Source of the DNA: a virus
Taxonomy: Duplodnaviria; Heunggongvirae; Uroviricota; Caudoviricetes
IMG/VR virus record: IMGVR_UViG_2698536610_000002
Reading direction: 5' to 3' (one strand)
DNA: 57,929 bases
Made by a program: the position numbers and the translations under genes. This document shows positions 9,084 through 28,046 of the stretch, piece by piece. The notes under the pieces were generated by a model. That model did not search any database. It was not told the DNA's origin and saw only the letters and a list, made by a program, of their open reading frames with translations. Within the stretch, counting starts at the first letter, position 1. Each line of letters opens with the position of its first letter.

Positions 9084-9668
9084 ATGAACAAGAAATACAC
9101 GTTGATCTAAGCGGATCCGCCCTGGACGTACGAGGATAAATGCAATTCTGGTAAGCGTGGCACCGGGCATAAATACTTGGTTATGACGGTGCAGGATATC
9201 TGCTGGCTGCCAGTAAGGGAGCGGGTTGCAGAAAGCTGCCAGCTGGCGATGTGGTGGTTGCCAACTCAAACGTTCGAGGCGATGAAAGTCGTCGATGCCT
9301 GGGGATTTCGCCTGATCACAATGAAAGGTTTCACTTGGGATAAAACCTACCCGAAGCAAACTGACAAATCGGCGATGGGAATGGGACACCTGATCCGGGC
9401 GAACCGTGAAGATTGTCTTTTCGCGGTAAAGGGTAAGCGGGCACCACAGCAGGACGCCTCGATCATCCAGCACTACACCTCGCCGCGACATGAGCACTCA
9501 CGTAAACCAGACTGCGTGCGTGAAATGCTGGTTCGGTTGCTGGGTAATCTTCCACGTATTGAGCTCTTTGCGCGTAAATCCTCCCACGGTTTCGACGTAT
9601 GGGGAAACAAGTGTGATTCGCCAACCGTATCATTAAGCCCGGCCCGAGTTACTGATGTTTATTCTTAA
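9084..9668 (+). pseudogene. MT-A70-family DNA adenine methyltransferase interrupted by an in-frame TAA at codon 9
   Basis: ATG 9084 MNKKYTLI then TAA (9108-9110), then in-frame ADPPWTYEDK... (DPPW catalytic motif); the longest intact ORF starts only at 9177/9183, downstream of DPPW. Confidence 0.6.
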
Positions 9669-9879
9669 AAGAATTAACTGAAAAGAGGAAGGTTTGATGA
9701 GTTTTTTTACGTGAATTAACACGTAAGACTGCTGGTTATTAAACCATCACATTAGATATCTAAAAATTGTGATCGGTATCTCCCTACTATAAAAAAAAGT
9801 AGTTGAATATACGGTCTATACTTGAAATAAATAAAAGTATTCTTATTTTTTAGATTCTGTGTTGTGAAAAGGAATTTTT

Positions 9880-10911
9880 ATGTCCTCGAATATTTTATCT
9901 GGTGAAAAAGTAATCAATAAAATTGCTGAAAAGTTGAGCGATTATAAATATCCTCCGGCTGAAGGTATGAACTCTGAACATGTCAGCAAATGGATTAAGC
10001 AATTTGCAGTGGAGGATAGACGATTTATCTTAGATGAAACGCTTTATCTACTTAATGCAGGTTACCTATCCGAAAGTCAATATCAACGAAAAATAAAAGC
10101 CATTGCAAGAAGTGAAAAGAACGCGAAATTCTTCAGATATGCAGGTTTTTTAGATATTCAAAAAAAAGGTTCTAGTCAGAAGGAATTGCTTAAATCTCTT
10201 TATGAAACAGTAGGGATCAAATTTAACATCGTTACTGAATCATCAACTCAAGATGAAGTAAATAAATTTGATACATTTGTATATATTGATGATGTGTCGT
10301 TTTCAGGAGAAAAGGCCATCAAATCGATAAGTAATTTTGTTTTAAAATTTAATTTAAGAGATATTAAATTCAATGTATATTTTTTTTCATCTCATACGTT
10401 ATCTGACTATAATATAAAAAGACGATTAGAATATATTTTTAAGGATAGAAACATTTTTGTACACGTGAAGAATGGTGGTATGCGTGAGGTTGAAAACCGA
10501 AAAAGTCGTTCTGCTCAATCAGGTGTTTTCTGGCCAAGGAAATATAGTGTAGATACTCCCGAGAAATTCGAGGAGTGTGAGCTTTACAAAGGCGTATTCA
10601 GAGATGGATATGCCTCTTCTGATAGTTTTAGAAATGAAGCCTCAAGGGATCGTTTCGAATCTATCCTTACTAAAGTCGGCTTTAATATCTTGCTGCACAG
10701 GAAAACCCCTAGTGAGGTGCTCAAACCTCTAGGTTTTTCTACTTTTGACGGTTTGGGTTTTGGGGGAACAACATTTACTTATCGAAATTGCCCGAATAAT
10801 GTGCCGCTGGCTTTTTGGTGGGGAGATTATGAACCAACAGGTGCTCCCGCATTGGACTGCTGGTATCCACTAATGAAGCGGAATGGGTATAATGAGTGGT
10901 ATGAGCTATAG
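9880..10911 (+). CDS. Uncharacterised 343-aa protein, upstream partner of a NADAR gene
   Basis: AT-rich ORF with SD aagga 7 nt upstream; internal FVYIDDVSFSGEKA weakly resembles a PRPP-binding (PRTase) loop; no confident family assignment. Confidence 0.8.
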   Translation: MSSNILSGEKVINKIAEKLSDYKYPPAEGMNSEHVSKWIKQFAVEDRRFILDETLYLLNAGYLSESQYQRKIKAIARSEKNAKFFRYAGFLDIQKKGSSQKELLKSLYETVGIKFNIVTESSTQDEVNKFDTFVYIDDVSFSGEKAIKSISNFVLKFNLRDIKFNVYFFSSHTLSDYNIKRRLEYIFKDRNIFVHVKNGGMREVENRKSRSAQSGVFWPRKYSVDTPEKFEECELYKGVFRDGYASSDSFRNEASRDRFESILTKVGFNILLHRKTPSEVLKPLGFSTFDGLGFGGTTFTYRNCPNNVPLAFWWGDYEPTGAPALDCWYPLMKRNGYNEWYEL

Positions 10912-11512
10912 ATTATATCCGCTACAGAACACAGTTTCCTTCAGGAAAACCACCGAAAAATGGGGGGGGCTTTCCAACATGGCTAAAGGATATCCATTGT
11001 TAATCAATGGGTTGCCTATTCAATCAAGTGAAATCCTTTACCAAGCATGCCGATATCCAGACTATCCGGATATACAAAAGGCCATCATTACTCAAGGAAA
11101 CCCCTATGAAGCCAAGCAGACCGCAAGATCGTTTGAATCCAAAACTCGCGCAGGATGGGATAAGAATCGAGTTTCGATTATGAAGTGGTGTGTATGCGTA
11201 AAATTATGCCAGAACTGGGATACGTTCTTTGCGCTGTTAGACAGTACAGGCGACCATTTCATCGTGGAACACTCAGAGAAGGACCAATTCTGGGGTGCCA
11301 GTAAAGACCCAGAAGGTAACTATTATGGTATGAACGTATTAGGGCGAATTCTCATGGACGTGAGAGGGGTTGCTAGGAAAAAGGGGGCTGATGGGTTTGC
11401 AACAATACCATCGCTATCTTTGGACAAATTTTTTCTCCTAGGCGAAAGAATTAAAGATGTAACATTTGTAGAGCCAACGCCTGGAGCAGGGCAAAGTTTA
11501 TCCTTGTTTTAG
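10883..11512 (+). CDS. NADAR-domain protein (YbiA-like N-glycosidase/ADP-ribose-processing superfamily)
   Basis: 209 aa; N-terminal GGLSNM-type signature (WGGLSNMAKGYPL) and overall YbiA/DUF1768-like layout; overlaps the upstream gene by 29 nt. Confidence 0.7.
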   Translation: MGIMSGMSYRLYPLQNTVSFRKTTEKWGGLSNMAKGYPLLINGLPIQSSEILYQACRYPDYPDIQKAIITQGNPYEAKQTARSFESKTRAGWDKNRVSIMKWCVCVKLCQNWDTFFALLDSTGDHFIVEHSEKDQFWGASKDPEGNYYGMNVLGRILMDVRGVARKKGADGFATIPSLSLDKFFLLGERIKDVTFVEPTPGAGQSLSLF

Positions 11513-25394: not shown

Positions 25395-25694
25395 ATGGAA
25401 ATGAAAAATTCTGGCTTTATTGCCAGCGGCCCCGCTCGAACTGAATTTATGAACGGCGATATTTACCGCGATAAATACGGCGGCACGGTAACGATTAAAG
25501 GCGTGGCAGAACGGCGCATCACTTACCGCCGTGAGGGGTATAGCTATGACTGCGTGATGCCTGTTTATCAGTTCCGGCGTGATTTTTCCCTGGTATATGC
25601 CACACCCCGCAGTAAGCCCATCAGCAGGGAAAAAGCGTGGGGAAATATCCAGAAAATGAAAACCATGATTAACGGATTCAGAGGTAAAAAATGA
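25395..25694 (+). CDS. Hypothetical protein
   Basis: 99-aa ORF; stop overlaps the primase start. Confidence 0.45.
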   Translation: MEMKNSGFIASGPARTEFMNGDIYRDKYGGTVTIKGVAERRITYRREGYSYDCVMPVYQFRRDFSLVYATPRSKPISREKAWGNIQKMKTMINGFRGKK

Positions 25695-27445
25695 AACTGG
25701 CACCGAACGTAAAACAGCAGTCACGCGGCATAAAACACAAAGGAACAGAAGTCATTATTTTTGCGGGTAGTGATGCCTGGGCACACGCGAAACAATGGCA
25801 GGAACATGATGCGCGTATGGCCGGAGATAATGAGCCTCCTGTGTGGCTTGGGGAGCAGCAGCTATCCGAACTGGATAATCTGCAAATTGTGCCGGAAGGC
25901 CGAAAATCAGCACGCATATACAGGGCCGGATATCTTGCGCCTGTAATGATAAAGGCGATTGGTCAGAAGCTGGCGGCAGCAGGCGTACAGGATGCAAATT
26001 TTTATCCTGAGGGTATGCACGGCCAGGAGGTGCAGAACTGGCGCGAATATCTGGCCCGTGAACGCCAGAATCTTTCTGATGGTCTGGTCATTGAGCTTCC
26101 GGTAAAGCAAAAGGCGCAACTTTCGCAGATGGCGGACAGTGAGCGCGCGCAGTTGCTTGCCGATCGCTTTGATGGCGTTTGCGTACATCCTGAAAGTGAA
26201 ATCGTTCACGTATGGCGCGGCGGGGTATGGTGTCCGGTCAGCACAATGGAACTTAGCCGCGAAATGGTGGCGATCTATTCAGAGCACAGGGCCACTTTCA
26301 GCAAGCGCGTAATCAATAACGCCGTGGAAGCGTTAAAAGTTATTGCCGAACCAATGGGCGAGCCGTCTGGCGATTTGCTGCCGTTCGCCAATGGTGCGCT
26401 TGACCTGAAAACGGGGGAATTTTCCCCGCACACGCCGGAGGACTGGATCACCACGCACAACGGCATTGAGTACACGCCACCAGCACCAGGGGAGAACATC
26501 CGCGATAACGCGCCAAACTTTCATAAATGGCTTGAGCACGCAGCCGGAAAAGACCCGCGCAAGATGATGCGTATATGTGCCGCGCTGTACATGATTATGG
26601 CGAACCGGTACGACTGGCAGATGTTTATTGAGGCCACCGGAGACGGCGGGAGCGGTAAAAGTACATTCACACACATAGCCAGCCTTCTGGCAGGGAAACA
26701 GAACACGGTAAGCGCTGAAATGACATCGCTTGATGATGCTGGTGGACGTGCGCAGGTTGTCGGGAGTCGTCTTATCGTCCTGGCTGACCAGCCGAAATAT
26801 ACAGGCGAAGGAACGGGCATCAAGAAAATCACAGGCGGCGACCCCGTGGAAATTAACCCGAAATATGAAAAGCGTTTCACGGCGGTAATCAGGGCGGTGG
26901 TGCTGGCGACCAACAACAACCCGATGATATTCACCGAACGGGCCGGAGGTGTGGCACGTCGTCGCGTGATTTTCCGTTTCGACAATATCGTCAGTGAGGC
27001 CGAAAAAGACAGGGAGCTACCGGAAAAGATTGCGGCTGAAATCCCCGTTATTATCCGCCGATTGCTGGCGAACTTTACCGACCCTGAGAAGGCACGGGCT
27101 TTACTACTGGAACAGCGTGACGGTGATGAAGCACTGGCAATAAAGCAACAGACGGATCCGGTTATTGAGTTTTGCCAGTTCCTGAATTTTCTGGAGGAAG
27201 CGCGCGGCCTGATGATGGGTGGCGGTGGTGATTCAGTGAAGTACACGACCAGGAACAGCCTTTACCGCGTCTATCTGGCGTTTATGGCATACGCGGGCAG
27301 GAGCAAACCGCTAAACGTGGCTGAGTTCAGCAAGGCCATGAAGCCAGCGGCGAAAGTTTACGGGCATGAATATATTACGCGAAAAGTTAAGGGAGTAACG
27401 CAGACCAACGCAATTACAACAGACGATTGCGACGCGTTTTTATAA
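25691..27445 (+). CDS. P4-alpha-like primase-helicase (D5/P4-family C-terminal NTPase)
   Basis: 584 aa; Walker A TGDGGSGKST and Walker B-like RLIVLAD; size and position typical of satellite replication proteins. Confidence 0.85.
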   Translation: MKLAPNVKQQSRGIKHKGTEVIIFAGSDAWAHAKQWQEHDARMAGDNEPPVWLGEQQLSELDNLQIVPEGRKSARIYRAGYLAPVMIKAIGQKLAAAGVQDANFYPEGMHGQEVQNWREYLARERQNLSDGLVIELPVKQKAQLSQMADSERAQLLADRFDGVCVHPESEIVHVWRGGVWCPVSTMELSREMVAIYSEHRATFSKRVINNAVEALKVIAEPMGEPSGDLLPFANGALDLKTGEFSPHTPEDWITTHNGIEYTPPAPGENIRDNAPNFHKWLEHAAGKDPRKMMRICAALYMIMANRYDWQMFIEATGDGGSGKSTFTHIASLLAGKQNTVSAEMTSLDDAGGRAQVVGSRLIVLADQPKYTGEGTGIKKITGGDPVEINPKYEKRFTAVIRAVVLATNNNPMIFTERAGGVARRRVIFRFDNIVSEAEKDRELPEKIAAEIPVIIRRLLANFTDPEKARALLLEQRDGDEALAIKQQTDPVIEFCQFLNFLEEARGLMMGGGGDSVKYTTRNSLYRVYLAFMAYAGRSKPLNVAEFSKAMKPAAKVYGHEYITRKVKGVTQTNAITTDDCDAFL

Positions 27446-27454
27446 TTTTTTGTA

Positions 27455-27700
27455 AAAGCCATCTACCCCATCTACCTGAACAAAATAAACTCATATTATT
27501 CAACATGATAAGTGGGTATAGGGCTAGGTAGAAGGCTAATAAAAGCTCTCTACCTCTTCTACCTGATTTTATCAGTTTCAGGTAGCAGGGTAGACGGCAG
27601 GTAGAGGAGTCAAAAAGCTATCTACCCGCTGAAAGCCGCGCCATTACTGACATGATGAGCATTCGGGTAGATGGGTAGAGGGGGGGAGGCACAACTAAAA
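27455..27700. repeat. Iteron cluster (repeated ctacc/ggtag-containing motifs) downstream of the primase: candidate island ori
   Basis: catctaccccatctacctg, gctaggtagaagg, ctctacctcttctacctg, caggtagcagggtagacggcaggtagagg, ctatctacccg, cgggtagatgggtagaggg. Confidence 0.6.
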
Positions 27701-27731
27701 ACTTTTTAAACGAGGGGGGGGGTGAAAATAA

Positions 27732-28046
27732 ATGCGCATACATAAAAATCACTTAACAAACATGCCAGCCGAAAACATGAATCAGGGGCGACAAATGACC
27801 AAAATTCGCAGAGACAGAACACAGGCAAAATATAAAGCGTTAGACATGACAGAGCTTTCCTTAAAGGTGGCAATCAAAGCGATAGACCACCACACACGGG
27901 CAGGATACGCGAAGGAACATCCCGACCTGATAAGCGCATTCATGACCACAGCAGCGGCAAACTTTGCCACGCTGACAGAACGGGAGATTGCCGAAGCGGA
28001 ACAGGTGACAACCATCAATGTTAAAACCGGAGAGCAGACAGCATGA
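27732..28046 (+). CDS. Hypothetical protein
   Basis: 104-aa ORF preceded by a G9 homopolymer (27714-27722). Confidence 0.4.
   Translation: MRIHKNHLTNMPAENMNQGRQMTKIRRDRTQAKYKALDMTELSLKVAIKAIDHHTRAGYAKEHPDLISAFMTTAAANFATLTEREIAEAEQVTTINVKTGEQTA

Follow-up and report, generated by a model that had tools for sequence, protein, structure and literature searches.

The closest described system is DS-32, a PRTase gene paired with a NADAR gene, which was validated by cloning in the DefensePredictor study (DeWeirdt et al., bioRxiv 10.1101/2025.01.08.631726; Science 2026, PMC13092281). Phage protection is reported in the supplementary tables of that work for the cloned DS-32, which is near-identical to the pair described here (DeWeirdt et al., PMC13092281). 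For DS-32 the authors suggest a possible toxin-antitoxin "partner swapping" with reference to DarTG (bioRxiv 10.1101/2025.01.08.631726). In systems of the DarTG kind, the place of the Macro domain is taken by NADAR domains (PMC9503650), and the substrates described for NADAR proteins are riboflavin intermediates for YbiA and ADP-ribosyl adducts for others (PMC9503650; PDB 2B3W). DarT-NADAR and DarTG resemble the pair studied here in that a NADAR-type N-glycosidase stands beside a transferase with the potential to form an N-ribosyl linkage. They differ in the partner, which is an ADP-ribosyltransferase in those systems and a PRTase-CE protein (PF24390) in ours, where toxicity and its reversal are putative.

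Phase-variable contingency loci with poly-G/C tracts are well known from Neisseria, Haemophilus and Campylobacter, as are phase-variable restriction-modification genes. Like them, the locus examined here has its homopolymer in the 5' portion of the coding sequence of a gene linked to defence, and a length change of one base there switches the reading frame. In contrast to those loci, its run is short, strains show no length polymorphism, the tract is not conserved and host mismatch repair (MMR) is active. The best measured hot spots of the same length and base in E. coli are the G8 runs of the tRNA-Leu genes leuP, leuQ, leuV and leuT, which the mutation-accumulation literature treats as outliers (PMC8510543). 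Ten MMR-defective experiments, covering about 250,000 generations, yielded 95 indels in these four runs (PMC8510543).

We analysed a window of 57,929 nucleotides, the whole of IMG/VR virus record IMGVR_UViG_2698536610_000002, in which a run of eight G lies inside a NADAR gene directly behind a PRTase gene. Our main conclusion is that this G8 run is probably an incidental by-product of codon choice in the NADAR gene of DS-32, a weak point for slippage and no phase-variation switch. The features of the module are as follows.

9791 to 9798, plus strand: intergenic run of eight A upstream of the PRTase gene; seven A in strain TW11681 (L001).
9880 to 10911, plus strand: PRTase-CE gene, DS-32A, 343 aa (Pfam PF24390, 134.9 bits; NCBIfam NF053875 DS32_1_antiphage, 312.7 bits).
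10160 to 10167, plus strand: run of eight A in the PRTase gene, with a frameshift product from a natural A8-to-A7 change (P0026) on record.
10380 to 10387, plus strand: run of eight T in the PRTase gene, read from the window sequence.
10901 to 11512, plus strand: NADAR gene, DS-32B, 203 aa (Pfam PF08719, 82.4 bits; NCBIfam NF053876 DS32_2_antiphage, 257.4 bits).
10962 to 10969, plus strand: G8 homopolymer, made of the third base of TGG and of GGG GGG; Trp21-Gly22-Gly23 of the 203-aa NADAR protein.
10979 to 10981, plus strand: in-frame ATG within the NADAR gene, coding for Met27 of the 203 residues and lying 9 nt past the G run; annotated as the start on 166 contig records.

Judged by its sequence, the gene pair is the already published anti-phage system DS-32. 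Both NCBIfam DS32 equivalog models were exceeded by the window pair (cut-offs 240 bits for NF053876 and 250 bits for NF053875), and the PF08719 match, set against a Pfam gathering score of 35.1, spanned profile positions 2-159 of 163, the N-terminal motif included. The window PRTase was identical to cloned DS-32A (WP_000097610.1), and the window NADAR was one residue apart from cloned DS-32B (WP_032260665.1), at E191K. The cloned fragment (NZ_QOXQ01000027.1, 48629-50261) is exactly as long as 9880-11512, at 1,633 nt. There was no substantive difference between the window pair and DS-32; the DS-32 paper is silent on the G run.

The two genes are adjacent on the plus strand and operonic, the PRTase stop overlapping the NADAR start by 11 nt, and the same order of PRTase followed by NADAR was found in 62 E. 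coli genomes and in four other genera. The NADAR start, ATG 10901, is conserved in all other alleles and is the one used by PGAP; two further in-frame ATGs lie upstream, at 10883 and 10892. A lambdoid prophage carries the module, which is flanked by replication gene P (with an MT-A70 pseudogene) on one side and ybcN/ninE on the other. A search of INPHARED phages with the module DNA gave zero matches. The MT-A70 family methyltransferase remnant occupies 9177-9668, just upstream of DS-32, and PGAP annotates its homologue in 504239, TW11681 and 23CRST001 as a pseudogene with an internal stop.

The PRTase would make N-linked ribose-5-phosphate, and the NADAR protein would hydrolyse N-ribosyl bonds and so oppose the chemistry of its partner. 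Because these predicted activities are chemically opposed, they fit a modifier/reverser pair, and the hypothesis that NADAR serves as the antitoxin of the PRTase was also raised by the DS-32 authors. Among proteins of solved structure, the window NADAR was closest in sequence to YbiA (2B3W) and the NADAR protein 8BAU. With E. coli YbiA, the closest (E = 2e-11), the segment WGGLSNM aligned with YGDFSNF, the second Gly being Asp in YbiA. Unlike the window protein, YbiA is a stand-alone housekeeping metabolic N-glycosidase without a PRTase partner.

The sequence-only reading had placed a G8 run, written tgg ggg ggg, in the N-terminal NADAR motif, and direct inspection of the window confirmed this description. 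Bases 10962-10969 read GGGGGGGG, eight G, flanked by ACCACCGAAAAATG on the 5' side and nCTTTCCAACATGGC on the 3' side. The codons around the run are ACC GAA AAA TGG GGG GGG CTT TCC AAC ATG; in the frame of the ORF 10883/10901..11512, TGG (10961-63), GGG (10964-66) and GGG (10967-69) encode the W-G-G of RKTTEKWGGLSNMAKG. The run falls in the invariant N-terminal NADAR motif EKWGGLSNM.

Judged on composition alone, a G8 run in this window is not remarkable. An i.i.d. model predicts about 1.06 G runs of at least eight in the 58-kb window. Dinucleotide-preserving shuffles gave a mean of 1.51 G8 matches, counted on both strands, and the three observed matches, which overlap, were equalled in 25 of 100 shuffles. 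The NADAR run was the only G/C run of at least seven placed within coding sequence in the window, the G7 at 27680 and the G9 at 27714 being intergenic. GGG is the commonest Gly codon of the NADAR gene (8 of 17; 6 of 15 without the two G8 codons). Given the W-G-G peptide and the gene's own Gly codon usage, GGG-GGG is expected with a probability of about 0.16, or about one time in six.

The peptide was conserved across lineages, whereas the run was not. W21, G22 and G23, and the L-S-N-M-A-K that follow them, did not vary among six lineages with identities as low as 58%. The G tract, in contrast, was not kept up across alleles and orthologues, most of which use GGT, GGC or GGA codons. The codons used for Gly-Gly were as follows.

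E. coli, the window's allele: GGG GGG.
E. coli, allele 2, most copies (42 of the 62 complete genomes with the locus): GGT GGT.
E. coli, allele 2, two copies (one among the complete genomes): GGG GGT, an in-frame G7.
IMG/VR contig L046, a 98%-identical homologue with an N-terminus like that of Klebsiella aerogenes cluster members: GGT GGT.
L012/L047, an 86%-identical relative: GGT GGT.
IMG/VR lineages: GGC GGT and GGC GGG.
Citrobacter: GGT GGC.
Enterobacter: GGC GGG.
Serratia: GGA GGA.
Aggregatibacter MAG: GGG GGG, independent.

A pattern scan of genome contigs gave zero matches; a protein-based scan then gave the four other genera. By parsimony, G8 would be the derived state of one narrow clade. 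The Aggregatibacter case is a NADAR homologue of 58% identity in an Aggregatibacter segnis MAG (L040, 3053-3060), which reads TGG GGG GGG and is preceded by a PRTase-like ORF. Taken with the allele-2 G7, it might reflect some bias, or selection, in favour of G at these third positions, in a sample too small to decide.

Length variation was assessed in public genomes. The locus was present in 62 of 5,426 complete E. coli genomes, and 19 of these carried the window's allele (99.4-100% identity over 1.9 kb). All 19 had the in-frame G8: over the 70 nt around the run 18 were identical, and the nineteenth had one synonymous change outside the run. DNA was read from 38 further contigs beyond these genomes. 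A pattern with 4-10 free bases matched 22 contigs (5 metagenome, 17 viral), all of which had 7 free bases, so that close strains showed no length polymorphism in either the 19 complete genomes or these 22 contigs.

At the protein level, the exact full-length NADAR protein was found on 685, 713 and 19 contig records according to start choice, counts that are redundant across sources, and a protein look-up found a 177-aa form beginning at Met 10979 on the 166 records mentioned above. Widespread frameshifting as the source of these shorter calls was rejected: DNA from ten sampled calls showed the in-frame G8 in nine, which were artefacts of start choice with the upstream frame open, and G9 in one. 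This G9 contig (L034; GCA_043296785.1, contig DAYIQY010000052.1, position 353-361) was the only length variant found. Its extra G was the sole gap in 3,403 aligned bases against the window, and the contig ends within the PRTase gene at window position 10610. Gene callers seem to be drawn to the internal ATG by the G8 run, which resembles a Shine-Dalgarno element and lies 9 nt 5' of it. Five predicted G7/G9 N-terminal peptides had 0 exact matches in a collection of 15 billion proteins, an uninformative result given that such short ORFs are rarely called.

These counts bear on the central proposal of the sequence-only reading, which had suggested run length in related genomes as a check. In the assemblies, which as consensus sequences are blind to mixtures within a culture, uniformity held for 19 of 19 genomes and 22 contigs and failed for L034. 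The proposal that the gene could switch off at appreciable frequency was not supported, the run being unvarying in these genomes and contigs and not conserved beyond them. Variant-free assemblies fit either a low slippage rate or a lethal off state and cannot separate the two.

The same reading was right about the effect of a slip, in that a one-base length change at G8 destroys the NADAR protein. Counted from ATG 10883, G7 leaves 39 aa and G9 leaves 34 aa (28-33 residues from ATG 10901), and both shifted frames stop after 5-10 codons. ATG 10979 is a likely restart point in a frameshifted allele. In the G9 frame a TAA stop lies two codons past this ATG, and restart there could give a G9 allele a 177-aa protein without the invariant F14-N26.

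Its description of such runs as slippage hot spots also agrees with the tRNA-Leu data: from the 95 indels we computed a G8 indel rate of 9.5e-5 per run per generation in MMR-defective lines (PMC8510543). Those runs lie in RNA genes of MMR-defective lines, whereas the window run is coding and its rate is obtained by proxy. Lee et al. are said to have found in 2012 that MMR reduces indel rates by about two orders of magnitude (about 100-300-fold). Scaled by this effect, the extrapolated slip rate of G8 in repair-proficient E. coli is probably about 1e-7 to 1e-6 per generation.

The E. coli substitution rate is about 2.2e-10 per base per generation. Over 1.9 kb, about 15 substitutions were found between the 18 other complete genomes and the window. 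This corresponds roughly, with wide error margins, to tens of millions of generations, in which some ten neutral G8 slips would be expected. Since about ten slips were expected under neutrality and none was seen in complete genomes, frameshifted NADAR alleles appear to be selected against; the estimate, within the same wide margins, suggests purifying selection. Among the 19 complete genomes, the only indel over the 1.9-kb module was the change from A8 to A7 at 9791 in TW11681. This indel fell in the intergenic A8 and spared all three 8-base runs that are coding, which is consistent with selection on the latter.

Inactivating events were found elsewhere in the module. The PRTase gene is AT-rich (36% G+C) and has two 8-base runs of its own, and the A8-to-A7 frameshift product noted above (P0026, WP_250261640.1) is a protein of 110 aa found on two contigs. 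In 23CRST001 (NZ_AP045758.1) the PRTase gene is interrupted, about 200 nt past its start, by the IS4-like element ISVsa5. A diverged allele (L025/L063, IMGVR_UViG_2617271072_000006) has a NADAR frameshift from A7 to A6 and, upstream of it, an intact PRTase ORF that differs from sister alleles by at most one residue. A broken PRTase gene with intact NADAR was thus seen in 23CRST001 and for the 110-aa product, and broken NADAR with intact PRTase in L063; in L034 the contig end cuts the PRTase gene. If it is no sequencing error, L063 provides a counter-example from nature to NADAR being obligatory as an antitoxin, and in this one natural genome the window-type pair departs from DarT-NADAR and DarTG.

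The run could instead act as a contingency locus, in which G8 is kept for reversible switching by slipped-strand events that silence the NADAR "antitoxin" in some cells and would unleash the PRTase or alter the defence state. The tract does lie towards the 5' end of the gene, so early that a single slip abolishes the protein, and the one G9 allele on record (L034) and the recurrence of G8 in the Aggregatibacter homologue would suit such a switch. G8 runs are also genuine hot spots (PMC8510543), and it has been proposed that genes are switched off through homopolymer tracts at their 5' ends (PMC2831843). We nevertheless consider this reading improbable: length polymorphism was zero across the 19 complete genomes and 22 further contigs, and most alleles and species have the same peptide without the tract. 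Eight bases in an MMR-proficient species should moreover slip at rates far under those of classical phase variation, and with its own A8 and T8 in the PRTase gene the module is without an asymmetric design. That G8 is a true contingency element of DS-32, in which slips would remove NADAR, restart at 10979 would yield a truncated form and rare lysogens would face an unopposed PRTase, is highly improbable. Were the contingency reading true, the run might provide a suicide or addiction trigger or a tuning of the defence state, especially in mutator backgrounds. A role of the run as a translational signal, namely a Shine-Dalgarno-like element 9 nt 5' of ATG 10979 that would drive a 177-aa isoform or a restart after frameshifting, has an equally slim chance. 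Spacing and sequence fit, and gene callers pick this ATG on 166 contig records despite the in-frame G8. Against it, the truncated product would be without F14-N26, most alleles have GGGGTGG instead, and the preference of gene callers does not count as evidence of initiation.

Programmed -1 ribosomal frameshifting or transcriptional slippage at G GGG GGG, giving an alternative protein, was considered on the strength of a heptamer, G_GGG_GGG, that stands in the slippery X_XXY_YYZ register and of a modest hairpin beginning 11 nt downstream (-18.9 kcal/mol, z = -1.6). The shifted frames stop too soon to leave an alternative product, the downstream fold is unexceptional (12 of 200 shuffles fold as well) and the heptamer is missing from most homologues. 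With such short shifted frames and so unremarkable an RNA fold, programmed frameshifting was rejected as having a negligible probability. Likewise, an artefact of sequencing or assembly has hardly any probability as the source of the run in the window. Some platforms are prone to errors in homopolymers, but this run is in frame, 18 independent complete genomes were identical across it, and 16 other G8 loci were identical as well (7 from pattern scans and 9 from protein look-up, some of them maybe from the same strains). The concordance of independent assemblies led us to reject an artefact.

Understood as an incidental by-product of codon choice, the run would have arisen when TGG GGG GGG came to encode the invariant Trp-Gly-Gly in a single narrow DS-32 allele, at least 99.4% identical among its copies, that appears to have spread recently. 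Like any 8-base G/C run, it would then form a weak point for replication slippage, at which a slip of +1 or -1 would truncate NADAR. In repair-proficient cells the rate would be low and frameshifted NADAR copies would be purged by selection. The effect of the tract would be a slightly raised rate of loss of function, reaching about 1e-4 per generation in mutator strains. The locus being the published DS-32 and the run an ordinary coding homopolymer, the run probably matters little for the biology of the system. Should the PRTase be toxic, spontaneous self-intoxication through this run would occur at no less than about 1e-7 to 1e-6 per generation, a rate too low to affect how populations behave. 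Where DS-32 is kept in mutator or long-passaged strains, inactivating slips should be looked for in G8 and also in the A8 and T8 of the PRTase gene.

The window contains two further G runs, G7 (27680-27686) and G9 (27714-27722), with 27 nt between them. Both are intergenic, lying between a 584-aa ORF (25691-27445), putatively primase/helicase-like, and a 104-aa ORF that begins at 27732. The G9 run is longer than the NADAR run and ends 9 nt 5' of ATG 27732, a possible promoter or RBS position.
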